From positions 21,888,001 to 21,952,000 of the forward strand of contig OZ076409.1 in the NCBI GenBank assembly GCA_964187785.1: DNA of 64,000 nucleotides. The letters run 5' to 3'. The notes under the pieces were generated by a model. That model saw only the letters and a program-made list of their open reading frames with translations, ran no database searches and was not told the origin of the DNA. The position numbers and the translations under genes were made by a program. Shown in pieces: positions 25,119 to 42,770 of this stretch. Each line of letters opens with the position of its first letter. Position 1 is the first letter of the stretch. This stretch comes from Amphiscolops sp. MND2022 (lineage: Eukaryota).

Positions 25119-25332
25119 CTGCAAACATATTCGGCAACTCAAAACTACTCCCAACAATTGCAACAGCTCACAAGAGCAACGCTTTTAATCTCGGAACAAG
25201 AGCAATGCTTTTAATATCGAAGTTAGAACGATGCTTTATAATTTGGACTACTACAAGAACCCAAATAATTACACGGAATAGAAACAACTAGACACCTTTG
25301 TATTGTGATACCGTCATAAAAATAATTCCTCA

Positions 25333-25546
25333 AGTAGTAGTGGAAATCCCGATACTGGCCAACAAAACGCCAAAAATTAAAAGTCCTCAAAACCATTGAT
25401 TTTGAGGACTTTTTAGAAGACAAATCATCAAAAATAGTGTTTTTATCATGAAGCAAAAATTCACTAACCTCTATGATGCAATGTGTAATAATAACACGTT
25501 GTTGTACAGCCAGCGTTGCTGTACAGCCAGCGTTAATGTACAACCA
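25333..25546 (+). repeat. Polinton left TIR (214 bp)
   Basis: Reverse complement of 39805-40018; contains a 14-bp-stem hairpin (25379-25413). Confidence 0.95.
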
Positions 25547-25626
25547 ACGTTGCTGTACAGCCAGCGTTAATGTACAACCAACGTTAATGTACAACCAACG
25601 TTGCTGTACAACCAGCGTTAATGTAC
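25497..25626 (+). repeat. 17-bp tandem repeat (CGTT(GC/AA)TGTACA(G/A)CCA(G/A)), about 7.6 units
   Basis: Direct inspection; only about 3 units at the right end. Confidence 0.95.
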
Positions 25627-25670
25627 CGGCGCATACGTTATTCTTATATAACTACAACTAACATTGATTC

Positions 25671-25925
25671 GTCTCCCATAGCTTAGTGGTTATAGCATTG
25701 ACTAAAGTTAAGGCTTCGGCCGGAGTGTTTGGGGTTCTTTTCTATTCAACGTCCCCCAGTCTTTGTTACAACTTACATGCTATGGGAGAATAATCACCAA
25801 TGGCACAGTTCTTAAAAAGGATAATCCCTGCTGTGGAAACTCTTAGTGGAACGGACTCCCGATGGGCTTTGAGTTTACCATAGGCATGTCAATACCAATG
25901 GCATGCCTATGGGTTTTGTATTTTT
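25671..25925 (+). ncRNA. Candidate structured Pol III-type non-coding RNA of the Polinton
   Basis: A-box TAGCTTAGTGG (25679-25689); 11-bp terminal stem 25672-25682/25779-25789; C(UUCG)G hairpin 25712-25721; second hairpin 25878-25912 followed by T-tracts. Confidence 0.45.
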
Positions 25926-25945
25926 CAACTTTTTCATTTTAATAA

Positions 25946-26758
25946 ATGTATGAAACTCCGTCTCTTCATAAGTTTGGTTATTCTAGTGAACAGCTAAAAC
26001 TGAGGGAATATCAGGAGCTAAAAGATATGATAAAAAGTCAAGAAAAATTAGCCCAAATAACACATTCCAAATTGAAAGAAGATTTGCAACGCGATTTTGA
26101 AAATGACATAGAAAATCAAGAGAAATTAATAGAAGAAAAAATACTGGACGTGAAAGGGCATCAAATACTAGACCCACAGGAAATTCAAGATGTTTTATTA
26201 AACACAAAGTTAATGAATGATATTTATTCCCAGTTTTCAGACCTTTCAAAAACCATAAATAAATTAGAACAAAATATGAAAAAATCTTTCGCCGAACAAA
26301 GAACTGCCTTAGTAAATGAGGTACTAAATTTAATACACAACAATAGTTTTGAAATGTTAACAGTCCGTAATTTAAAGTTTATGAGTCAGGTGGGTCAAGC
26401 TGGAATGATTTTAAATGAAGATGAAATAGATAATATTCTTAATAGCCTAGATCAAAATAAAATTACTATAACTAACAACATAATTCAACTGCTTTATGAC
26501 AAAGGTTTGTTCGATTCCTTTCCCAATAAAGATCAAGCTTTTGCAAATTATCTAACTTTCAGTGAAACATACCTCTTGGAAAAGTATGGAAAAACAATAC
26601 CTACTTCAGATGGTGAATATTATCTGTCTGATTTAGAATATTCTACCAGACAATCAATTCTGGAGTCATTGAAAAAAGACAATTTTAAAGACCTTGTTGA
26701 TATGAAACACAGAATGAAATTAACACCAACGGAAATAAATTTCATTTTATATGATTAA
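25946..26758 (+). CDS. Polinton hypothetical protein (helical, coiled-coil-like), 270 aa
   Basis: Intact ORF starting in TAATAAATG; no recognised motif. Confidence 0.7.
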   Translation: MYETPSLHKFGYSSEQLKLREYQELKDMIKSQEKLAQITHSKLKEDLQRDFENDIENQEKLIEEKILDVKGHQILDPQEIQDVLLNTKLMNDIYSQFSDLSKTINKLEQNMKKSFAEQRTALVNEVLNLIHNNSFEMLTVRNLKFMSQVGQAGMILNEDEIDNILNSLDQNKITITNNIIQLLYDKGLFDSFPNKDQAFANYLTFSETYLLEKYGKTIPTSDGEYYLSDLEYSTRQSILESLKKDNFKDLVDMKHRMKLTPTEINFILYD

Positions 26759-26761
26759 TAA

Positions 26762-27470
26762 ATGGAACAAAAACTATCCCTCCTTGACCCCAACGGCCTC
26801 TCCCCCCACACCATATGATGTAGAATCAATGATAAATAAGCGATTGCAAAGCGCGTTGCAAAACGAATTACAAAAAGTAAATAGCTTCAATAATTCTATT
26901 CAAAACATTAGTCTAATGATGAAATATTATGAAATGGAAGAAAAGAAATACAAACAGAAATACAACAAATACAAGATAATAAATAACCTAATTAACTCCC
27001 TTGGCATTATAGTGATTGGAACAACTTCAGCATCAATCTCACTAAGTATTACTGGTGTGGGTATTATAGTTGTTCCAATCGCTGCAGGAGTTGGTTGTAC
27101 AACTGGTATTCTTGTTAAGATTTGTTCCAGTTATTTGAAGAAAAAGGAGCAAAATTATAAACTTAAGTACACTATTATTCAGAAGACTCTTGACGACTTT
27201 AGACAACTTTATGTCACTAGCCTAAACGATAATCATATAGATGAAAATGAATATCACCGATTTGTGACTCAATTTGAAAATTATCGCGAAGCTTCGCAGG
27301 TAGCTTCACAGGAAATTCACACAAAATCACGCGCAGCTTCGCGCACAGCTTTGCATACAAAATCACAAGTAGCTTCACACGCGACAGCTAACGCGGCAGC
27401 TACCGCGACAGCTAACACAGCTTCACACACACAACCAACAATACCACTTAAACCACACAATTTTTTATAA
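26762..27470 (+). CDS. Polinton membrane protein (coiled coil plus hydrophobic hairpin); probable frameshift near the start
   Basis: Hydrophobic LGIIVIGTTSASISLSITGVGIIVVPIAAGVGCTTGILV; the motif-bearing ATG at 26762 (MEQKL) is out of frame with the main ORF (26751-27470). Confidence 0.7.
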
Positions 27471-27582
27471 TTAATTTATTCAATTTTAACATAAAAAATA
27501 AAATAAAAATTAACACTAATAATTGAAAAATATACTATTGAAAAATATGCTGCTATTAAATTCATAATTTTATTATAAATAA

Positions 27583-30500
27583 ATGGAGAACTGCAGTAGT
27601 TGTAATTCTGATTATAAAAAAGCTTACAAGTCCGATCATCTAAAATCAATAAAACATTTACAAAAATTAAATCAATATTATTGCAAAAAATGTAATACAT
27701 TTATGCCATTGTCTGACAAGTCTAATCATCTAAATTCAGATGAACATAAAAACAAAACCAAACAACAACGCGAAGCTACACAAATTTGGTGTGAAGATTG
27801 TGGCAAATATATAAGTAATTCAAGACATTTCCAAAGTGAAATTCACACGTTAAGAAGTCAAAACAACACTACAAAAAACACATTTGGTAATACACTACAT
27901 GATTCTGGAACTGGCGTAGAAATAATTGTGAATGAAAAAACATACATTAAACTGAGAGTAAATCCAACAAATCATCTTGAAGAACAGATTAATGATTTAC
28001 TAAATAAAAACTACTTTCCCCGATACAAGTTCCAATTGAGTTATTTAGCGAAGTTTTCAAAAATAGTTAATGGGCAGAGCTTCGCAGAAGAAATTGTATT
28101 TCACAAATGGGTTAAATCAGATTTTAATTACAATCACACGCAGATTGCCTTCGGCACAAACCCAAATATTCACAACATATTAATGCAGAAATTAGATGAT
28201 GAACAATTAGAAGGATCAGGTTTTGTGTTAAACGGTATTATCAATGTTATAATGGAGGTATATAAAGTCAATGATATTCAAGCTACTTCATGGGTTGAGT
28301 TGCCAGAAAAATATAAGAATAATAAATCAATTATAAATATAAAAAATGATGATCAATTTTGCTTTTTGTGGTGCATCCTAGCACACCTTTTTCCCGTTGA
28401 GGATCATAAAAATAGAACATCAAATTATTCAATGCACACGAACAAACTCATTTTAAATGGTTTAGAATTCCCCATGAAAATTAAAGATATTCCCAAGTTT
28501 GAAAACTTAAATAATTTAAACGTAAATGTATTTGAACTCACAAAAACAGTTTTAACACCAATTCATATTAACACAAACTATGATCAACCACAAATAGATT
28601 TATTATTATATCAAAATCACTATTGCTTAATAACAAAATTGCATTGTCTAATAAATAAGGATTCGCACATGAAATGGGTGTGTAGAAGATGCCTGACTGC
28701 ATTTAGTTCTGAGGATATTCTCAGTCAACACATTGATCGTTGTCAAAAACAACAACCAACTAATATCACATTCAGTTGGAAGGATCACTTAAAGTTCGAA
28801 GATTATAATATGAAAGTTCCCGTACCAATAAGAGTATATGCAGATTTTGAATGTATTAATCAACCCGCAAATGACCACGAAGCTGCGGTAGCTATCGCGC
28901 CCATAGACAAGTCCAAAGTATTATTTAAACAAATTCCAATTGCAGTAGGATTTTATATAATTTCACCATTTGGTAATAATTACAGCTCATACTTTGGTGA
29001 ATCGTGTGTAACATGGTTTGTAAATGAAATGTTGACTCTAGAAAACATTGCTAGTAACTATTTTGAAACAAATTTACCTCTTGAAATAACTCCTGAAGAA
29101 CACCAATCATTTCAACAATCCAAAGTGTGTTGGCTTTGCGAACGAAAGTTAGACGGTGAGGGCGAAGCTACGCATAGCGTTCGAGATCATGATCATCTTA
29201 CAGGCAAGTACCGAGGAGCAGCCCACAACAAATGTAATTTAAATTGTAAAAAAAAGTCAAGTTCGTTTGTTCCTATATTTTTCCATAATTTCAGTGGTTA
29301 TGATTGTCATTTAATTTTTGAAGAACTCTTAACATCAGCTTATAATCTAAAGTTACCAATAAATATTATACCAAAGTCAATGGAAAATTATGTAAGTGTG
29401 CAAGTAGGTTGTTTAAGGTTTTTAGATTCATACAGATTTTTGAGTAGTAGTCTACAAAAACTTATAACATCATTAAATGATTTTCCTTATATGCAAATTG
29501 AGGGCCTAACTGATGATTTATTTAAGAAAAAACTAGCTTATCCATACGAAAAATTCAATCTTAACAACCTGCATGAACCACTAAATCTAACAAAAGAGGA
29601 CTATTGGTCAACATTAACACAATCTCACCCATGTGAGGATGATATAAAAAGAACCCAACAATTGATTGACACTTACAACATTACAACAGCACAAGAACTA
29701 ACAGAATTGTACTGAAAAATGGATGTACTACAACTCACTGACGTGCTCGAAAACTTTGTTGAGAAGTCTACACTTGAATACGGCATCAATCCTTTGTACA
29801 GTTACTCTTTACCTGGTTATACATGGAAAGCTGGTTTAAAACTTACTAAAATTAAATTAGATTATATAAAATGTAAAGAATTATTATTACTTTTAGAAAA
29901 CAATATACGTGGAGGAATTTCAAGTGTTATGGGACCCAGATTCATTGAGTCAAATGAAAATACTAAATTACTGTACATTGATGCAAATAACTTGTATGGA
30001 TGGGCAATGAGTCAATACCTTCCTACTGGAGACTTTAAAAAGATGCGGAGCTGTCACGAAGCTATGCAATCTGATTCTGCACTGATGAATGAAATTGCAG
30101 AAGACATTTTGAATACACCAGATGACAATGAATTTGGATACTTTATAGAATGTGATTTAGAATATCCAGCAGAAATTAAAGAAAAAACCGAAAACTTTCC
30201 ACTTTGTCCTTATCAAACAAAAGCCGATCCAAATCTTTTCTCAGAATACATGAACAGTGTAAAACAATCCAACTACAAACCAACCGAGAAACTTATGTGT
30301 GACCTAACAAATAAATATAATTATATGATGCACTACAGGATGTTCAAGTTTTACACCCAGATCGGGATGAAAGTAACAAAGATTCACACAATCTACCGGT
30401 TCAAACAATCACTTTGGTTAGAAAAATACATTAATCATAACACACAAAAACGCACCAAAGCAAAAACAAACTTTGAGAAGGACCTCTACAAATTAATGAA

Positions 30501-31452
30501 CAACGCTTTCTTTGGTAAGACTATGGAAAATGTTAGAGACCGGACTAATTTAGAGTTTATCCCTCACACCAATATTGATCAAATAATAAAAAGACAATCG
30601 AAGTTAAGCTTTAAAGGAATTACTAATCATTACTCTGAATTCAGTGTTTACAAGTTTGATAAGGAAAAAGTAATTTTTGATAAACCAATATACTTGGGGT
30701 TTAGTGTTTTAGAACTGAGTAAATTGTTAATGTATGAGTTTTATCATCACAAATTACAACCATATTATAACACAGACGTCAATCTGCATTACATGGATAC
30801 AGACTCATTCATTCTAAGTATTAAAACTGGAGACCTTATAAATGATTTGGAATACTTCAAAGATGATTTTGATTTCAGCGAGCTCGACCCAAGTCATGAG
30901 TTGTACAACTCAATCAACAAGAAAGTTATAGGTAAAATGAAAATAGAAACATCACCAATTATTGAATTAGACAACTTCGTAGCTTTGAGATCTAAATCAT
31001 ATTCTTTTAGCTATGGCTCAGCACAAAAGCTAACACAAAAGTCAAAACAAAAAGGAATACAACATACACCGATTTATTCACAATTTATAAATTCATTATT
31101 TAACTCTGAAACAACAACTGCAACTAATTATTCTATTAGAAGTAATGCTCACAACTTAACTGTTCAGAAACAAGATAAGCTAGCTTTGAATCCTTTTGAT
31201 GACAAGCGTGTGTACTTGAATCCAATACAAAGTTTATCATGGGATAAACACACACAAAAAGGTGATTGTCCTTGTATACTTTGTATAAAATTAGTTGGTT
31301 TGTATTACACCGAACTGAGCACAAGGGATGGCAAGTCCGCGCAGCTTCGCCTTCGGGATGAAGAAATATACTATAACATTTGGACTCTGAAAGAAAAATT
31401 GAATCATCAACAGCTTTTAAATCTGATAAGTGATCGGGCCCATTTATTGTGA
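27583..31452 (+). CDS. pPolB: Protein-primed family B DNA polymerase with one in-frame TGA (29713-29715)
   Basis: N-terminal Zn fingers; Exo motifs YADFE and FHNFSGYD; EndoVII/HNH-like CWLC...RDHDHLTGKYRGAAHNKCN; Pol motifs YIDANNLYG, KLMNNAFFGK, YMDTDS; the two track ORFs are in the same frame. Confidence 0.95.
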
Positions 31453-31605
31453 TAACTATCGTGATAACTGGCGTGACGCACAGTTTCGCGATAGCTTTCA
31501 CACACATCTTTTATAATTAGAAATATCATTTATTATCATCATTTATTATCATTTATCATCATTTATAATTATTAATCTATGATTCATCATTCCTCTCATA
31601 TCAAA

Positions 31606-32853
31606 TCAAATGAGGTCAAAATGCCTTTGCCCATCACTACTAATACTTATTAGTTTTGGGGTTAATACAAGTGCATAAGCTATATAATCTGCTACATCAA
31701 TGGCAGCATTAAATTTAAATTCTAAACGGATTGGTTGACTCGCAATGATATCCTTTTGTTTGCTGAGGTCAAATACATAAAAATTATAATTTGTTCTGAA
31801 TTTGTTCAAATCAATGAAGGGATTGAGTAAGTTAGTTTCACTATTCAAGTGATAAAAGTTTTCAATTTCACTGTATGCTTGATCATATTTGTCGCGGTCG
31901 TAATCACATTCTATCCCATCATCGGGATATTTTTCTGATCCTATTTTACAAACAGCATTACTAATTGGCAACCGGTCAAACACTGCATTATCATGAACCT
32001 GAGAATCAATTTTATTTCTAGCTTGAAATCCAACAACCACAAAAGTTGGAGTCGATGTTCCCGAAGATCCGCCTGCGTTGCCTAATTCAAATGTCCAATT
32101 CGAATTCGTGTTAACATCTTTTCTAAAAATAATTCGTTCCGTGTAACTCAATTCGGTTGGATCTTTATTTAGAATTTGGTCCATGACAAGTTGTTGGTTT
32201 TCGATACTAGGAACATAGTGTGGAATATACCAACCAATGTCTTTAATAACCACTTTTGCAGCATCCACTCCAACACTTCTTAAAATGGCGTCATTGTTAG
32301 TGTTCCGTTTGAGAGTTAATGTGTAGCCCAACCCATAAGTTATTTTTTCTTGATCAGCAAATCCAAACAAGTCTTTTAGTTCTATTCTCACAAAAAAGGT
32401 TCCTTTCTCATTTTTGTTGTTTGTTAGTTCTTGTCTTCTGATAGTAGTATCTTCTTCAAACCCATACATTAATTGACTTGTGGATTTAGTGCTTGTCAAA
32501 CACTTGTACATTAAAGAAATCAAGTGCAAATTGTCAACTTTTTCTAGGTGTTTCCCACTAGAAGTTGTTAATTTGGCTTCACTAAATAGAGAGATTGGCC
32601 CAAAGTTAACCAATCCAATTTCATCACCATCAGCAAATCTTGTATTATTGTTTTTAAGTACTTCAAATTCTAGACTTATGAAACTATTTTGTAAACATAT
32701 GTATGCATCTTCTCTTGGGAAACTAATTGTAGTATTCGAGTTTGTATTGTTAATTGTTGCCAAACTACTTGGACTATACTTTATGAAATCAATTTTATGA
32801 ATAGGTTTTTCGAGCGTGTATTTATTTTTTAAAGAAAACATATCTGTGTTCAT
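31606..32853 (-). CDS. Polinton major capsid protein (double jelly-roll), 415 aa, intact
   Basis: Size, beta-rich pattern and Polinton MCP-like segments (TPTFVVVGFQ, KYPDD, FYVFDLSKQ) in viral context. Confidence 0.8.
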   Translation of the reverse strand: MNTDMFSLKNKYTLEKPIHKIDFIKYSPSSLATINNTNSNTTISFPREDAYICLQNSFISLEFEVLKNNNTRFADGDEIGLVNFGPISLFSEAKLTTSSGKHLEKVDNLHLISLMYKCLTSTKSTSQLMYGFEEDTTIRRQELTNNKNEKGTFFVRIELKDLFGFADQEKITYGLGYTLTLKRNTNNDAILRSVGVDAAKVVIKDIGWYIPHYVPSIENQQLVMDQILNKDPTELSYTERIIFRKDVNTNSNWTFELGNAGGSSGTSTPTFVVVGFQARNKIDSQVHDNAVFDRLPISNAVCKIGSEKYPDDGIECDYDRDKYDQAYSEIENFYHLNSETNLLNPFIDLNKFRTNYNFYVFDLSKQKDIIASQPIRLEFKFNAAIDVADYIAYALVLTPKLISISSDGQRHFDLI

Positions 32854-32890
32854 TTATAATAAAAAAAATTATTGCGAAAGCTCCACGAAA

Positions 32891-33780
32891 CTACGTGGAA
32901 CACTGCTCAAATTTGTGGAAAATATTCATACTTTCTAACGTTTTGTTGTTAGAGTCAAAGTCGAATATGCTACTTAAAAGTTCTTGTTCATAGTATTTTC
33001 CTTGAATAATTCCTCCGTTTTCATCATTTAGAGTGTATGTTACTGGGTTTGTTTTGTTGATGTTGTGTATTTTAAAAAGTTCTCTATTCCAATTTGTTGT
33101 ATAACCTTTTGAATAAATGTTCCTTTTGTCAGGAACTCTTACAAAATCCCCCACTTGGAATTTGGCGAAGCGGCGCGGTTGTTTCGGTTTATTAACAAAG
33201 GTAGGTGGATCGATTGGTTTTTTATTCGCTTCAAAAGGTGTCATTTTTGTTGTGGTATGGACACGATTATTATACTTTTGTAAAGCAGCATCAAGGCGAT
33301 TCAACCAGCTACCTTTACCCTCAATATACATTGGTTCCTTAATTAAGTCCAGAAGTGTTCTATTGAAGCGTTCAACAGAAACAGCTTTCAAATCTGAATT
33401 AGTTGAATAAATTTGAATGTTTTGCTCTTTTAAATAGTGTAAAAATGTTGTGTTGTAAAACTTTTACCTCTATCACTCCAAATTTTGTGTGGTTTTCTCT
33501 TCTCTTTTTCAATGAGACCTTTTAATGCAGTAGTTGTACTTTTTCCTGATTTATCTTTGAGGGGAATCGCCCATGCATATTTAGTATGGTTGTCAATTAT
33601 TGTGAAAATAAACTTGTAGTTTTTGTTGTATTTGCTTAAGTTTGAGCGATCAATTAAATCGATACTCCAACATTCATCTTTATAGTGAGTTTGTATTTGA
33701 ATTCTTTGAAACTTCTTGATTACAGGAGAGAATATTTCTTTAACAATTTCTTTCTTGCGAAGCCCTGCATTTTGATTCAT
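32891..33780 (-). CDS. Retroviral-like (rve) integrase, 1-nt frameshift near 33462
   Basis: WSIDLID, TIIDNHTKYAW, WSDRGK(E)F, VERFNRTL DDE core; C-terminal FQVGDFVRV; no chromodomain visible. Confidence 0.93.
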
Positions 33781-33814
33781 TTATTATAGTTTTATAACAA
33801 TTTTTTATAAATAA

Positions 33815-35016
33815 ATGAATAATGATTATTGCTTGCAGAGCTATAGAAATAATTATCAAGGTGAAGGAGACGGCGCGAAAGCTGGCGCGGGAGCCGATGT
33901 GGCCAACAAACTGTATTGGTATCAGAAAACACAAATTTATAAAGTAATCACAAATCCTATGTTTTTTGTATGTTTAATTATATTTATAGGTATTATTGTT
34001 GTAATATATTGGAATTATATTCGCCCTAGACAGTTTAAAACAATTTATAAAAAACTACTACAATTTGCAGGGTTCAAATACTCTCATCTGACAAACCAGG
34101 AACGCGAAGCCCCCCAGGATACACGCGAAGCTACGCGTGAAGCTGAAGTTCATGGCAATTCCCACTTCATAATTTATGGTAGTAGTGGCTCTGGGAAGAC
34201 AAGTTTTTTAAAGCATTATTTGGCACAAGTTGCAACACAACGCCAAAGAAATTACGTAGTTTTCGGGAGAGATGAACGTGAGTTTCCCACTCAAAATTTT
34301 GTACCACTACTGCAGTTGGAGAAAGTTAGTATTGAATCACTTACTAATAAAATTGTTGTACTGGATGATGCAGGTGCATACGAAAGTCTTAAAACAAAAG
34401 TAGAAGACTTATTTAGATACGGTAGACACATGAATATAGTAGTAATTTATCTCGCTCACTATGCAAAGGATGTTCTTCCAATCGTGAGGGAAAATTGCTT
34501 CAAAATATACTTAACAATTAATAACCCAGATAACTTCTTCGAGTCGATTGTACAAACTTATGCGTTAGCTTCCGCGATCAAAGACGGGTTTAATTGGAAA
34601 TACTACCGCGATCATTTGGAGTTTGGTATAATTGAATTTGACACAAGGAGTCAGAAATACAAGATTCTAAACGATAAATACAACTTAATTTATGATTCGA
34701 GCAAACGAAGTAAATGGGGCCCCCAGAACAACTTGTTGCTTATGAAAGTTACTTTTTCACTGGTGATGAATACAACAGACTCAAAATTTTCTTAGAGGAA
34801 ATGTCCGACCAGACAATCGAAATAACACCAATCAACATAGCTTATTATTATGTGTTTTATTGCAAACAAAATAATATTAAAGTAAATGAATCCAAAATAG
34901 ACAACTACGTTGAGCGTATGCAAAAACCACTAATTAGTGATTCAGTTAAAGAGGACTTTAAAAATTTAATTTATGATCAGGCAAAAAGTTTTACTAAAAA
35001 TAAACTGAGTAATTAA
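33815..35016 (+). CDS. A32/FtsK-like ATPase 1 with N-terminal transmembrane helix; frameshift near 34720
   Basis: TM segment MFFVCLIIFIGIIVVIYW; Walker A GSSGSGKT; Walker B VVLDD; RYGRH; VREN; ORF 34714-35016 continues it after a C-run. Confidence 0.85.
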
Positions 35017-35029
35017 CGAGAAATTAACA

Positions 35030-35300
35030 AAAAAATATAGTGATTCTTAGAGAAGTTTAGAGAAATTTAGTGATTCTTAGAGGCATTTAGTGATCTCTAA
35101 GAATCTCTAAATTTCTCACTAAATCACTAAGGTTTCACTAAGAGCATTTATTTTCACTAAATTTCACTATAATCTCTAATCTTAGAGAAATGAATACTCT
35201 TAGAGGAATTTAGTGAAACCTTAGAGGGATTTAGTGATTTTGCTTAGTGATTACATAGTGATTACATAATGATTATTAGAGGAATTTAGTGATTTTTTAC
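35030..35300. repeat. Intergenic array of TTAGTGA/TTAGAG motifs in both orientations
   Basis: Many TTAGTGA, TCACTAA, TTAGAG and CTCTAA copies in about 270 bp. Confidence 0.85.
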
Positions 35301-35307
35301 TAAATAA

Positions 35308-36378
35308 ATGAATTGCTTAATTTGTAATAAAAGTAGTGAAAAAAGTTTGTGTGATGATTGTAGTAATAAAAAAAGATGTAAAGATTGTAATACATCAAAA
35401 TCCAATACAAATTTCTACATCTACAAAAATGGTAAAATGTATAGTACATGCATTCAATGTTTTAATAAAAAAGTGAGGTGTGAATTTTGTAATAAGGAAA
35501 TAAATAAGAGTTATTTAAGGTCACACGTCAAGAAGCAACACTATAATCAACACTATAATTATAATCAGCACTATAATCAGCATACTGGGGGTGATTTGCT
35601 TCCACGACAGCTATCGCGACAGCTATCACGAGAGCTACAGCGAGAGTTGCCACGAGGCGTGTCTTCACACAATAAAAATAATAATAACGCGGAAGCTAAC
35701 GCGAAAGCTATCGCGAAAGCTATCGCTAATGATGATAATGCGGGAGCTAACGCGGGAGCTAATGCTAATAGTGGTGTGAACGAAACTAATAGAACATTAA
35801 TAGTTGGGCCATCATTTTGTGGTAAGACTCATTTGTTGTTGAATAAATTACGATTGATTCGTTTGGAAGATCCAGAGAAACAAATTCGTATCATTACAAG
35901 GAGTCCGGAACAATATGAGGATGTGGAGCTTTATATTCAAGGAATAGAAGTGGAAGAAAATGTGGGGGATTTGGAAGAGTATAGGGGGTGTTGTGTAGTA
36001 TTTGATGATATGTTAGACTCCAACCAGAAATTGATTGATCCATTTTTTACTAGGGGAAGACACAAATCTTGTGATGTTTATTATTTATGTCAGAGTTATT
36101 TTGATGCACCAAAAAAGACAGTTAGAAACAATTCGAATATAATAATTTTATTTCAACAAACACTGAAAGATGTAGAACATATTCATAGGGACATATCAGG
36201 TTTTGATATGTCTTATGAGGAATTCAAAAGTTTGTGCAGAGAAGCATGGAACGAAAAATTCAACTACCTTTTAATAAACAGATTGGAAGATAAAAATGGG
36301 AGTAGGTACAGGATTTGTAATGAATCTAATCCAAATTACAAGATCTTTAATCCACAAACTGATCCTTTAAGTAATTAG
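35308..36378 (+). CDS. A32/FtsK-like ATPase 2 with N-terminal Cys-rich/C2H2 Zn-finger region, 356 aa
   Basis: Several CxxC pairs and CEFC...HVKKQH; Walker A GPSFCGKT; Walker B VVFDD; TRGRH; QSYF; VRNN. Confidence 0.9.
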   Translation: MNCLICNKSSEKSLCDDCSNKKRCKDCNTSKSNTNFYIYKNGKMYSTCIQCFNKKVRCEFCNKEINKSYLRSHVKKQHYNQHYNYNQHYNQHTGGDLLPRQLSRQLSRELQRELPRGVSSHNKNNNNAEANAKAIAKAIANDDNAGANAGANANSGVNETNRTLIVGPSFCGKTHLLLNKLRLIRLEDPEKQIRIITRSPEQYEDVELYIQGIEVEENVGDLEEYRGCCVVFDDMLDSNQKLIDPFFTRGRHKSCDVYYLCQSYFDAPKKTVRNNSNIIILFQQTLKDVEHIHRDISGFDMSYEEFKSLCREAWNEKFNYLLINRLEDKNGSRYRICNESNPNYKIFNPQTDPLSN

Positions 36379-36394
36379 GGACTTCGTGAGGAGA

Positions 36395-37477
36395 TTAGGA
36401 GATCAAGTTGCTTCGTGCGTAGCTCTGCATATTTTGGTGTTGAGAAGGTGATATGCATTCATACTCCAATAACTTGTCTATAATTGCAATAATTTGTTCA
36501 TTAATCAGAAAACTATCATTTCCTCCAACTTTTTCAAAATAAAGTAGTTTCAATTGATCCACTAATTCGTCTGGGTCAGATGGGAGGAAAATGTACTGTT
36601 GTGTGGAGCTTCGTGTGGAACTTCGCGAAGTTTCGCCATTTGCGTAGCTTCGCAATCCACTTCCTGTGAAGCCCTGTGTATAGCTCTGTGATTGGCCTTG
36701 TGTGAAGCCTTGTAATTGATAGCGAGAGTATAATTCTTTAATAAATTGATATCTGATCGATTTTTTATCTCCATAATTTAGATCATATTTCATATCATTT
36801 AGGAAGTTATAAATTGGGCCCCAGTTATTTATTGGTTTGTCAAATTGTGTATTAGTTATAAAATATTGAAGATCTGGGTTACTAAGATCATATGAATTTC
36901 CATTCTCGAAAGTCATTGTTGAACCTTTAATTAGTACTTGTTGTGGGTTATGGGGATTAATTATGAATAAATTAGGATTGTCTTGTGCGAAGCTCTGCGT
37001 AATTGGTTCTAAACTAAATTGACTTTTGTTTTTCTCATTAGGTAAATTAGAAACTGTTTTTACAATATTAGAATCAACCTGGTTGGAAGTAACAAGACTC
37101 GTAAGAAGCTGATTATTACGATTCGTAATTTCATCATATTCTTGTATTCCTTCTTTAATTGATTTCTGTAAATTTTTATTCAAAGCGTTACTCGATTCTC
37201 GAATAGCCTGTGTTTGATTTTTTATTGCTTGTACTGTTGTTTGTGAAGCTGCGCGGGTAGAATCATGTAGTGCTTGTATTTGTTTTTCAGATAATTGTTT
37301 CTGGTTTTCAGTAGCTTCCACCTGCTTTGTAGTAACAGGTTCAAAAACTTCTTCAAGGTCATAATGAAAGTCTTGCTTCCCTAGTTTCTCTTTTAACCTT
37401 TCTTTGCGTACTGAAGATTTTGTTTCTTGTAATTTTTTCAATTTTTCCAAGTCATCTCGGGTGTGAATTGAATACAT
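36395..37477 (-). CDS. Conserved Polinton hypothetical protein (coiled coil; C-terminal DPDELVDQLKLL...GND motif), 360 aa
   Basis: Intact ORF; C-terminal motif resembles one recurring in animal Polintons; GSG putative protease site. Confidence 0.7.
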   Translation of the reverse strand: MYSIHTRDDLEKLKKLQETKSSVRKERLKEKLGKQDFHYDLEEVFEPVTTKQVEATENQKQLSEKQIQALHDSTRAASQTTVQAIKNQTQAIRESSNALNKNLQKSIKEGIQEYDEITNRNNQLLTSLVTSNQVDSNIVKTVSNLPNEKNKSQFSLEPITQSFAQDNPNLFIINPHNPQQVLIKGSTMTFENGNSYDLSNPDLQYFITNTQFDKPINNWGPIYNFLNDMKYDLNYGDKKSIRYQFIKELYSRYQLQGFTQGQSQSYTQGFTGSGLRSYANGETSRSSTRSSTQQYIFLPSDPDELVDQLKLLYFEKVGGNDSFLINEQIIAIIDKLLEYECISPSQHQNMQSYARSNLIS

Positions 37478-37490
37478 TTATTAAGTATAA

Positions 37491-37985
37491 TTAGTGGATT
37501 TTCCCCAGATACAGGCCTTTACCATTAGTTCTTGCTTTTCTGTTTGTGTTGCTTGTGTTAGCTGCTTTGCTGCCTTTACTCGACAATGCTTCAGCTTTGT
37601 ATAACCCCTTCCCTTGATGAACAAATTTAATAACGTCAGGGGCAGTTGCGGCAATTAATCGTGGATTTTTACTTGCTGCTGCAGTTCCAATATTTGCTGC
37701 TATTTCTAGTGCGCGGCCTGGATTATTGAGTATTTTCTTTCCAACATTTTTGGCTGCAGAACCTAAATGTTTGAAAAAGTCCCCCAATCCTTCCCCATCT
37801 ATTGTTCGTTCAGATACAATTAGACTCTTATTTCTGTTACATATCATGCAGTTGCCACGTAATGTGTGTACGGGCCTGCCCATCTGTATCCCAGTGTTTG
37901 TAATTTCTCCATGAATATTTGTGGTGGGAGAATAATGTTTTCCACCAACACAATATGAATTATTTATAAATTTATTATAACTCAT
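37491..37985 (-). CDS. Putative virion core/membrane-lytic protein, 164 aa
   Basis: N-terminal Cys motif, then GEG followed by amphipathic LGDFFKHLGSAAKNVGKKIL; GKGLY occurs twice. Confidence 0.65.
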   Translation of the reverse strand: MSYNKFINNSYCVGGKHYSPTTNIHGEITNTGIQMGRPVHTLRGNCMICNRNKSLIVSERTIDGEGLGDFFKHLGSAAKNVGKKILNNPGRALEIAANIGTAAASKNPRLIAATAPDVIKFVHQGKGLYKAEALSSKGSKAANTSNTNRKARTNGKGLYLGKIH

Positions 37986-38064
37986 TTATTAGAAAAAAAT
38001 TATCATTTTTGTGGAGCTTCGTGAAAGCTATCGCGAAAGCTATCGCGAACGCTATCGCCCAACA

Positions 38065-39125
38065 TCATATTTTAATAATTTGAATTGTGAAGGTGAGTGT
38101 CTCCCCGTTGAAATCAACTGAATCATGATTAGAGTCCTCAAGGAAAAATTGAATGGTGTCCAGTCGTGTTTTGTTAATTGATTTGTACAAAACAGTTGTG
38201 GGTTCTTTTATAAGTTTATATCCGGGAGGTGCGCTTAAATTGAAAGAAAATAAAATTTGTTCTCGTATACCATTAACAATTGAACCATCTACACAGTCGC
38301 ACTTCAGATGAACTTTATCGGTGGTTGTTATCATGACTGGTTTTTCTGAAGTGTGAGTTCCGGATGGGTAATCACGTTGTGTAAAACCCAGGACTTTGTT
38401 AAGTTTGGAGTTAAAATGAATAGGGTTTGAGGTTGTTAAAACTGATTTCATCGATATTGTGTCGGGTATTATGTTGAATTCAATACTAAAAACTGTAAGA
38501 TCTTTTTTGAATTTTGACTTATCATCTAATTCATAACCTGAATCAGTAATTATTTGTTTTATGGTATTATTTATTTCAATCAGTTCGTATACACCTGGAA
38601 CTAAATTTATATCAATAAACTCATTCTCAATTTCAAAGTTTGGAATAGTTATAGGAATGTTGCTCTTCATTTGCTTTAAATAGTCAAAATCTTTTTTCGG
38701 AAGTTTCTTCTTTTTTTATAACTAGTAAGAAAATATATATTAGCTTTTTCTATAAATTCATAGTAAAGTTTATTATTTTCTAAATCATAAGTTTCAAATA
38801 GTTTTTTTATATTTGGCACCACTCCTGTGTCAAACTCAAGTGCATCGAGTTGTCGATCATTTAGAATAATCTGTAGTTTGTTATTGCTGTTAGTGATATT
38901 ATAAACTGTATTGTACACTTCTAAACTTGTTACTCCCATCATCCATTTTTCATTTAAAATGAGAGGAACATCAAATGAGAAAGATTCTTTTTGTTTATTC
39001 ATTTTAAATTCTAGAGTTTCTTGTGGTTTAGAATGAGTATTTTCAACTATTTCTTGATTAGATTTTGCAATACTTAAAAGAAGAGATTCTTTTTTATCAT
39101 AAGTTATGAAGGTGGATAGATCCAT
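38065..39125 (-). CDS. Minor capsid (penton-like) protein, frameshift near 38700
   Basis: KWMMGVTSLEVYNTVYNITNSNNK, INLVPGVYEL, VHLKCDCVDGSIVNG, VDFNGETLTF; split over ORFs 38676-39125 and 38065-38670. Confidence 0.78.
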
Positions 39126-39128
39126 TTA

Positions 39129-39359
39129 TTATAGATTAAATTGTTTGAATCCACTAGCGGAAATGTTATTTATAAATTCTTGCCTATCTTTTGATAATGT
39201 TTTCTTATGCGATAGCTTCCGCAAATTTGTTGTATTTTTTCCATGATTTTGATTGTGAAGCTGTTCTGTGGAGCTGTGCGTGAAATTATGCGCGTTAGCT
39301 GTCGCGAAGCTGTGCGAGATAATTTTACATTGAGTTGAATAATTATTAATTTTCTTCAT
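39129..39359 (-). CDS. Small basic Polinton protein, 76 aa
   Basis: Starts in TAATAAATG; start overlaps the protease stop and stop abuts the penton start motif. Confidence 0.6.
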   Translation of the reverse strand: MKKINNYSTQCKIISHSFATANAHNFTHSSTEQLHNQNHGKNTTNLRKLSHKKTLSKDRQEFINNISASGFKQFNL

Positions 39360-39780
39360 TTATTAAGTTTGAAAGTTTGGTAGTATAAATTTAGTACTGC
39401 ATTTTTGAACCCAATTTTATTTGTGAGATACAGTGTGTATAAACAATACGCCGCGCAATAACTGTCGTTGGTCTGAATTTGATATTCTGAATAAATACCA
39501 TTTTTAATATGATTAAGTATATTAGTTGGGGGTGGGCATCCATATGAATCAAATAATTTTGATTTGTAAACATAACCCAATGTGTTCCCACTGAGGGATG
39601 TAAGTTAACTATACCACTGGTAGTGTTAAACTTATCATCTCTCATGTATATTCCACACACTGTATTTATTTCGCCGGAGGCACCAAGCCTATCAAGTATT
39701 TCTTTTATTTTTACATTGGAAGTTGCTTCGTTTTTTAGTCCGTATTTTTCAACAAATTCTTTGAATGATAAAGAGTTCAT
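39356..39780 (-). CDS. Adenain/Ulp1-like cysteine protease, 1-nt frameshift near 39552
   Basis: GTHWV (His), FDSYG (Asp), QIQ...YCAAYC (Gln/Cys) split over two overlapping frames. Confidence 0.9.
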
Positions 39781-39804
39781 TTATTAGTTATTTTTCATTG
39801 TTGC

Positions 39805-40018
39805 TGGTTGTACATTAACGCTGGCTGTACAGCAACGCTGGCTGTACAACAACGTGTTATTATTACACATTGCATCATAGAGGTTAGTGAATTTTTGCTT
39901 CATGATAAAAACACTATTTTTGATGATTTGTCTTCTAAAAAGTCCTCAAAATCAATGGTTTTGAGGACTTTTAATTTTTGGCGTTTTGTTGGCCAGTATC
40001 GGGATTTCCACTACTACT
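39805..40018 (-). repeat. Polinton right TIR (214 bp)
   Basis: Reverse complement of 25333-25546; no mismatch seen by eye. Confidence 0.95.
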
Positions 40019-40095
40019 TCCTCAGAGTAGAGCATCTACCATCAATCACAATTTTCTTGATAGATTTCGTGCATGACGTAACAAAATAAACTAAC

Positions 40096-41479: not shown

Positions 41480-42770
41480 CAGTGCTGTGATAAAAGAATG
41501 GAACCACTGTTTAGGAAAAAATATTGGAACGACAGATTTATTTCGAAATTAATAGTCAACAATCAACAAAAACCAAAACATATTATGAATATAACATCAA
41601 GAAGTCTTCAATATTTAGTGTTTTTACCATTTCTGCGTAATACTTCATTCAGTCTTCTGGGAATAGACTCATAAAGAGTTTCTATGAAATCTTGCGGAAT
41701 TTTTCGAAATTCTTCTTCGCAAGTGTGCCAAAGTTCGTCTACAGTTTTCGGGTTCATTTTGGAGACCTTTTTCTTCAGAAAACTCCATACATGCTCGATA
41801 ATATTGAGGTCTGGAGACTGAGCCGGCCAATTTTCAAGACTTTCTACAGCATTTTCCAACATCCAAGTTTTTGTTAAGGTAGCTGTATGAACCGGAGCAT
41901 TGTCTTGTTGAAAAATTTCGCCCAGGTACATGTTCGGAAGGAGATTTTCTTGCAAAATTTGGACGTAAGAGACGGCATTCATGTTTCCAGACACTTTTGC
42001 CAGTCCTTTTCTGCCATCCGATGAGATGAATCCCCATAACATCAGTTTTTTTCCACCGAATTTTTTTGTTTTGCAGAGATATTTTTCTTCTATGCCACTT
42101 TTGAGAGGTCGTCTGACTAGTATTCTGCGATTTGGCGACAGTTCGATTATTGTCTCATCGGAAAAAATAACGTTTTTCCAAAAAGTTGTCGTTTTCAGTA
42201 CGAATTCCGATGCGAACTTTTTTCGAAAATGTCTATGACTTTGGGTCAATAACGGTTTCCGAAAGGCTACTCTTGCATGAAGTCCATAATTGAGAAGTGT
42301 TTTTCGCACAAGACTAGTTGAACAAGTGTTTTCGGGCTTCAGATGTTGTAAAAGTTCCGTTGAAGACTTTTTTGGATGGTTAATGGACAAAGTAATAAGT
42401 TTTTTTTCTTCCTTTTCTGTCAATTTTCTTGGTCGGCCGGGGCTTTTTTCATTTGCAAGATGGCCTCTGGACTTGAAATTCTGAATGACATTGAAACAAG
42501 ATGTTTTCGGAATGTTTAAAGTAGCTGAAATTTCAAATAAACTTTTGTTTTCGTTGTGCAGACTAATAATTTGTTGTTTGACTTCTATGTCATATCGAGG
42601 CATCTTTCATCAATGATTGACAAACCTAAACTGGCGTAGATTCAGCCTTTGTTTACCTAGATGCAATTTTCTCAGACACCCAGGCGTTTTAATAGAAAAT
42701 TATTTGCTAATATTTCACTGTTCCAATATTTTGTAACAATCAGAGGTTCCATTCTTTTATCACAGCACTG
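41480..42770 (-). mobile_element. Intact Tc1-like DNA transposon (1,291 bp)
   Basis: TA TSDs; 26-bp perfect TIR CAGTGCTGTGATAAAAGAATGGAACC, imperfect to about 51 bp; intact transposase. Confidence 0.97.
41608..42603 (-). CDS. Tc1-family transposase, 331 aa, DD35E
   Basis: HTH with GRPRK; FSDET, QQDNAPVH, SPDLNIIE. Confidence 0.97.
   Translation of the reverse strand: MPRYDIEVKQQIISLHNENKSLFEISATLNIPKTSCFNVIQNFKSRGHLANEKSPGRPRKLTEKEEKKLITLSINHPKKSSTELLQHLKPENTCSTSLVRKTLLNYGLHARVAFRKPLLTQSHRHFRKKFASEFVLKTTTFWKNVIFSDETIIELSPNRRILVRRPLKSGIEEKYLCKTKKFGGKKLMLWGFISSDGRKGLAKVSGNMNAVSYVQILQENLLPNMYLGEIFQQDNAPVHTATLTKTWMLENAVESLENWPAQSPDLNIIEHVWSFLKKKVSKMNPKTVDELWHTCEEEFRKIPQDFIETLYESIPRRLNEVLRRNGKNTKY

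Follow-up and report, generated by a model that had tools for sequence, protein, structure and literature searches.

The RNAs described so far that come closest to the locus presented here are small structured transcripts of DNA viruses. Adenovirus VA RNAs are transcribed from type 2 boxes, with box A located in the terminal stem, box B in the apical stem and a central junction, and a tRNA origin has been proposed for them (PMC7589676, in the sections available). In MHV68, the TMERs begin with a tRNA-like head transcribed by Pol III, after which come hairpins and a poly-U end (PMC4378190, in the part available). EBER1 and EBER2 of EBV, also structured Pol III RNAs, pair their 5' and 3' ends and are helped by an upstream TATA-like element. 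Cellular vault RNAs share the layout of a structured Pol III RNA with paired 5' and 3' ends.

Polintons, or Mavericks, are relatives of adenoviruses that have been described almost solely by their proteins, and their terminal repeats are taken as replication and integration signals. The words "noncoding", "tRNA" and "hairpin" are absent from the available text of two Polinton surveys (PMC8097293, PMC10748475). Likewise, no Polinton Pol III RNA was found in searches of the accessible full-text literature, which covers few subscription papers or Repbase reports.

In the window (the whole 64-kb stretch of DNA that was analysed), one Polinton carries near its left end a 280-base cassette with sharp edges, from a TATA box at 25645 to a T-run at 25925. 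There is slightly better than an even chance that this cassette is a Pol III gene for a folded non-coding RNA of ~250 nt that would serve the element as a protein-binding decoy. If true, this would be the first Polinton non-coding RNA, as far as the accessible literature shows, and a living parallel to the proposed tRNA origin of adenovirus VA RNA. The RNA (a 250-nt U-ended form and longer array forms) would then report when integrated Polintons are active and on their coexistence with host silencing. The features of the element and of the cassette are the following:

25333-40018, + strand: Polinton/Maverick element with AGTAGT ends; 6-bp target-site duplication at 25327-25332 and 40019-40024
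25333-25546, no strand assigned: left terminal inverted repeat (TIR) stretch, a perfect inverted repeat of ~215 bp with its mirror at 39805-40018 at the right end
25496-25631, + strand: 17-bp tandem repeats 5' of the module, absent from other subfamilies
25645-25651, + strand: TATA-like box (TATATA at 25645-25650), at a fixed position of about -26 relative to the predicted start; the conserved block begins here
25671-25789, + strand: conserved core, the predicted 5' RNA domain, with terminal stem, inner helices, UUCG hairpin and apical hairpin
25679-25689, + strand: box A, exact TRGYnnARBGG, at +9 from G25671, running into a tRNA D-arm-like stretch
25733-25743, + strand: box B-like element, 54 nt past box A, with 9 of 11 positions in the window copy
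25790-25877, + strand: type I middle domain with two predicted hairpins, replaced in type II by an array of GNRA hairpins
25878-25912, + strand: last hairpin, with a 12-14-bp stem in most copies and a loop of variable length
25914-25925, + strand: T4 and T5 runs, predicted to terminate Pol III; 3' limit shared by the conserved block and the long TIR
25946-26758, + strand: first ORF (270 aa, no Pfam family), which starts in a AATAAATG context of its own and does not always accompany the module

The likeness to VA RNA I and II lies in the predicted fold, in which box A falls in the terminal stem, box B in the apical stem and a central junction is present. Membership of the VA RNA family, which the original prediction had evoked, was not borne out. 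No VA match was found by Rfam (E up to 10) in the window or in a second type I copy (L002), and over the island the same search gave nothing, save two chance-level matches in L002. The module lacks a conserved GGGU-ACCC stem in its central domain, ACCC being unconserved by eye in the alignment of cores described below. Whereas VA RNA is ~160 nt long and has U4 right after its terminal stem, the first T4 of this family lies ~125 nt beyond that stem, and the transcript is predicted to extend 130 nt or more past it. Unlike VA RNA genes, the module resides in a TIR, often twice per genome, and its 3' part is exchangeable.

The module resembles the TMERs as a tRNA-like head followed by hairpins and a T-run. 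It differs from them in that its head is no cloverleaf and in its array stems of ~14 bp with GNRA loops, which reach at least 61 near-identical copies. Typical pre-miRNAs are longer than such stems. A cloverleaf head, of tRNA or TMER kind, is argued against by ARAGORN, which under default settings detected 0 tRNA genes in the window and at a relaxed score gave sub-threshold "???" calls only. EBERs and vault RNAs are set apart by the lack of an Rfam match and by termination that does not directly follow the closing stem. With respect to tRNA-derived SINEs, the box A/box B head is akin to host tRNA-derived repeats, but the module is fixed in a subterminal position in Polintons, and neither a tail nor a target duplication was seen.

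The Polinton of the window and its terminal module

The element is 14.7 kb long and gives Pfam matches to an rve integrase, a DJR-like (double-jelly-roll) capsid and a Pox_A32 packaging ATPase; these, with its TIRs, 6-bp target-site duplication and AGTAGT ends, are shared with Polintons/Mavericks (PMC8097293 and PMC10748475, available text). The ORF at the polymerase position (29719-31452), a candidate for the protein-primed family B polymerase of Polintons, has no Pfam match, and was named from motifs judged by eye and from 34-37% matches in two viral contigs. In this copy the polymerase-position gene is split by a stop (27583-31452), the integrase is present as two ORFs (32891-33780) and the last gene is shortened (39129-39780). 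The upstream polymerase ORF contains an endonuclease VII domain match. P-loop motifs occur in the ORFs at 33815-34795 and 35308-36378, the Pox_A32 Pfam match being in the first only.

A TAAATG start context is found in 11 of the 15 ORFs of the element (25946-39780), ten of them with AATAAATG. These contexts overlap a possible poly(A) signal, and they may resemble the poxvirus late promoter motif.

All the motifs of the original prediction are present in the island. The 11-bp terminal stem is formed by 25672-25682 and 25779-25789, the inner arm by 25689-25697 and 25764-25772 with one A-C mismatch, and a GGC-TTCG-GCC tetraloop hairpin lies at 25712-25721. The last hairpin pairs 25878-25888 with 25902-25912 and is followed by T-runs that start at 25914, 25921 and 25930. 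The core has 43% G+C, against 30-35% within the element. The duplicated ACCAATGGCA does occur, at 25796 and 25894, but its second copy is found in a loop that ranges from 6 to ~45 nt and without conservation.

Distribution of the module among Polintons

The exact terminal-stem pattern has 251 sites in the genome and 0 in the control. The island accounts for 49 of the 50 sites listed, and 24 of the 49 make up 12 inward-facing pairs 10-15 kb apart, as counted by hand in those 50 of the 251. In a DNA search, 40 of 768 candidates scored at 95-100% identity, and all the 30 regions fetched (30/30) correspond to Polinton left ends. The cassette points inward from one or both Polinton ends.

Seven whole regions were fetched. 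The five chosen for their inward pairs carry an inverted repeat that extends to ~25925, 587-754 bp long in four of them and reduced to a 276-bp remnant in the fifth; one of the other two consists of two separate elements, and the last one, like the window, has a short TIR without the island. The island had been described as adjoining the left TIR. This is so in the window, whose Polinton has lost the right-end copy, but in many relatives the island is the inner part of the TIR itself, at both ends.

Distant homologs were collected with box A-based patterns and extended by DNA searches, and 100 cores were kept after dropping 5 array-only false matches. Polinton DNA or protein flanks 96 of the 100, in a sampling that favoured the best matches, and three of the remaining four (not L181) show Polinton-like subterminal text by eye. 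A tandemly amplified mini-element was observed at ~2.675-2.681 Mb of G000:C7 (L097, L099, L100), where head-to-tail units of 1.5 kb each comprise the TIR, the entire module and the start of the end gene.

Fourteen type I loci from other subfamilies were compared with the window in 10-nt bins. Identity is 79-99% over most of 25641-25920 (68-84% over 25621-25660 and mostly 90-99% for 25661-25920), with a minimum inside the block of 75-81% at box B and the last loop. It falls to 41-55% upstream of 25620 and to 50-71% downstream of the block. The middle domain (25790-25877) shows 94-100% identity in most type I members of other subfamilies. This conserved block is common to subfamilies with unrelated flanking DNA. 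Judging from these sequences, its identity across subfamilies could reflect constraint or recent recombination and exchange; under either account, what is exchanged amounts to an entire predicted transcription unit. The island is conserved and shows compensatory changes; it is no insertion confined to this copy, as the host SINE considered originally would have been.

The module is absent from all ten elements (10/10) of a sister family with a 409-aa capsid and genes ~74% identical, and is therefore dispensable. This sister family (L046-L065) has TIRs of 150-285 bp and a subterminal patchwork: two short shared anchors with unrelated repeats in between. In viral contigs neither a capsid relative nor a match to the core or array patterns was found, and their two distant polymerase relatives gave no covariance-model match. 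The sole metagenome pattern match sits inside a prokaryote-like coding region and was rejected as chance. Hence no module homolog outside this genome was found in the viral contigs and metagenomes.

Predicted fold, promoter boxes and exchangeable 3' halves

The region 25665-25800 folds with z=-4.57 (1/200 shuffles as good) and 25665-25940 with z=-4.52 (0/200). The minus strand of the core is nearly as foldable (z=-4.33), and the core is foldable as DNA too (z=-2.78, 3/200 shuffles); the + strand is the stabler RNA in 52 of 54 cores. These 54 cores form alignment A1, obtained from 66 non-redundant rows by removing 12, namely five false matches, six truncated or deleted rows (L104, L153, L176, L180, L184 and L187) and one with an insertion (L024). 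RNAalifold predicts 7 pairs only on this alignment by default and 41 pairs with altered (RIBOSUM) settings. The 41-pair model contains the terminal stem, the inner helices, the UUCG hairpin and the apical hairpin with box B, and 92% of its cells are paired over the 54 cores; a structure drawn by hand gives similar pairing figures.

Covariation across copies, proposed originally as a check, was detected against shuffles: both-side changes occupy 44 cells, compared with 21.9 in shuffles (0/500), mostly at four pairs. The number of pairs with such a change (eight) is not above that of shuffles (169/500). Counted on a tree of 128 nt, which is poorly resolved, same-branch double changes that keep the pair number five versus 2.5 expected, which is not significant (p=0.11). 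Pairing is kept in 28 of 52 inherited changes versus 55 of 168 private ones (p=0.009), and the excess of G-U over A-C among inherited changes is not significant (p=0.24). The structural support is moderate, and the core is predicted by this modelling to be a rod-like fold of ~120 nt with four compensated pairs.

The Pol III consensus is TRGYnnARBGG for box A and GGTTCRAnYCY for box B, and a TATA-like box near -31/-24 is helpful (PMC7279448, in the text available). Of 81 distinct cores, 67 have an exact box A. For box B, 65 of the 81 match at 10 of 11 positions, the mismatch being at the conserved A, and two match at all 11. Boxes A and B combined (at most two mismatches, 40-64 nt apart) occur at three places in the 64-kb window. 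The two other pairs, at 25 (+) and 56203 (-), belong to dispersed host repeats. In a type 2 gene, box A is expected near +10 to +22 and box B ~40-60 nt behind it, and the spacing of 54 nt in the module agrees with this. In the window copy, box B carries two mismatches at its distance of 54 nt from box A. The weak box B with a T4 run noticed originally is real in this copy but private to it, since the run is absent from 29/29 others compared; four positions set the window copy apart from all of these and put the T4 run into its box B. The window copy may be a weakened one.

Two forms of the 3' half exist. In type I, all 59 units (59/59) have a T4 no more than 14 nt behind their last hairpin; internal T4 is absent from 52 of them and present in seven, and it also occurs in the window copy. 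Since neither copies nor tandem units are independent, these T-run counts, like the GNRA counts below, overstate the support.

In type II (37 loci), 1-9 hairpins in tandem stand behind the core in place of the type I 3' half, each with 14 pairs, three of them fixed G-U pairs, and with A-rich linkers between hairpins. One further locus, excluded from the type II counts, presents at least 61 hairpins over 3961 nt without T4, and then T6. A GNRA loop is found in 110 of 129 distinct type II hairpins, most of the loop variation being a single A/T dimorphism together with A-to-G transitions. The mean fold of these hairpins is -8.5 kcal/mol as + strand RNA, compared with -1.7 as - strand RNA and -1.3/-1.0 as DNA. 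T4 runs within the units number 22 versus 84 in shuffles, while A4 runs number 114 versus 108; the units were selected for their resemblance to a single natural unit and share a history of duplication, which makes the counts non-independent. T4 lies within 20 nt behind the last hairpin in 20 of the 37 loci, and 17 have no T4 close behind the last hairpin detected. Array 14-mers have no match within the window, and therefore no local antisense target.

The two unrelated 3' halves follow one logic, hairpins and then a T-run, on the strand that bears the boxes. The original prediction offered one or two small Pol III RNAs. Conserved boxes, sharp boundaries, compensated pairs and T-run placement favour a structured Pol III unit, and the layout of the family predicts one RNA of ~250 nt instead of two separate ones.

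Origin and possible function of the module

Similarity of the head to host tRNA-like sequences covers box A and the D arm; for instance, a host tRNA-Thr gene is matched via these two only. Beyond box A, the head resembles two of six old tRNA-derived repeat loci (L070, 0/300 shuffles; L196, 4/300), and 55 nt inside a host SINE-like family match it as well (0/200 shuffles in most pairings). This family (L067, L069, L074, L092) is ~370 bp long, with a tRNA head, an internal second box A and a CT-rich tail. A covariance model of the core scores none of 14 host tRNA-like or SINE-like loci tried, and the fold was therefore probably gained after capture. The head was likely captured from a host tRNA-derived repeat and then refolded. 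The type I 3' half was also compared with the body of the SINE-like family; the likeness is weak and is not relied on (0-11/200 shuffles against three SINE copies for L002 and L101, none against L092, and none for L113).

It is probable that the cassette is a transcribed Pol III RNA under selection. Host TFIIIC and TFIIIB would start transcription near G25671, the start that we infer. The first 120 nt would fold into the rod, whose terminal stem holds box A and whose apical hairpin holds box B, with a central junction. Pol III would then read on through the 3' module, which is exchangeable between three hairpins (type I) and 1-9 or more with GNRA loops (type II), and halt at the T-run. Transcription inward from each end would thus yield one RNA of ~250 nt or its array form.

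A decoy role against host defences, which is suggested by analogy, is about half as probable as a selected transcript. VA RNAs bind PKR, Dicer or Exportin-5. By analogy with VA RNA as a decoy of RNA-binding defence proteins (PMC7589676, PMC4378190), the abundant RNA would titrate host double-stranded-RNA or RNAi proteins, and an array would offer many binding sites. More tentatively, Polintons might have made a VA-like RNA plus a GNRA sponge from a host tRNA-derived repeat, independently of their adenovirus relatives; we regard this as possible but rather unlikely. Were it so, a multivalent RNA encoded in both terminal repeats would disarm RNA-based defence of the host, its valency rising from one to dozens via repeat expansion.

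Among other explanations, the module could be a neutral hitchhiker, a dead host SINE or tRNA fragment captured once, with the array as a minisatellite and recombination spreading the block. The likeness of the head to host tRNA-derived repeats beyond box A and to the SINE-like internal segment agrees with such a relic, as do the patchwork in the sister family and the event-level covariation (p=0.11). We nonetheless consider it improbable: the edges of the block match the TATA box and the terminator, not a tail or a target duplication; a clean free-standing copy was not seen among the 100 cores, nor the dispersed free copies, tail and target-site duplication expected of a SINE, and 96 of these cores are in Polinton context; the fold appears to postdate capture; and both unrelated 3' halves finish in a hairpin and a T-run.

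Slightly less probable is that the boxes act on DNA, TFIIIC bound at the ends insulating the element from heterochromatin or opening its ends, and that the RNA is a by-product. tRNA-type promoters can act as barriers, the module is present at both ends, and promoter elements are the part common to both types. This would leave unexplained the conserved pairing, the G-U-rich GNRA arrays and the T4 avoidance, and box B, the anchor of TFIIIC, is precisely the imperfect part.

The chances are lower again for a Pol II reading, in which the TATA box would serve Pol II and the folded region would be an IRES-like or regulatory 5' leader of the first gene at each end. The TATA box ~26 nt upstream of the predicted start would suit it, and so would the left-end ORF of type I, which begins 21 nt past the T-run, and the protease-position ORF at right ends. 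Against it, there are eight ATGs within 25671-25945, the identity and distance of the downstream gene vary widely, 11 of the 15 ORFs have a TAAATG start context of their own, and the exact box A and terminal T-run would be unexplained. Finally, it is very improbable that the hairpins act in single-stranded DNA, in protein-primed replication or packaging, as their TIR location and the folding of the core as DNA (z=-2.78) would allow, given that the array hairpins, with three fixed G-U pairs, scarcely fold as DNA on either strand, that T4 avoidance is strand-specific and that the + strand is the stabler RNA in 52/54 cores.

Other observations concern the element and its surroundings. An ORF for a Tc1/mariner-type transposase is located at 41608-42603 of the window, and the segment 40091-40351, adjoining the right end of the Polinton, resembles by eye an exon of a HAD-family hydrolase. 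Short palindromes of GCGAAGC type are recurrent insertions in genes and in the module (25333-40018 in the window; L024, L039, L066 and L101). GCGAAGC forms an unusually stable DNA mini-hairpin. The sequence CGCGAAGCT occurs five times in the window Polinton and 0 times elsewhere in the window.
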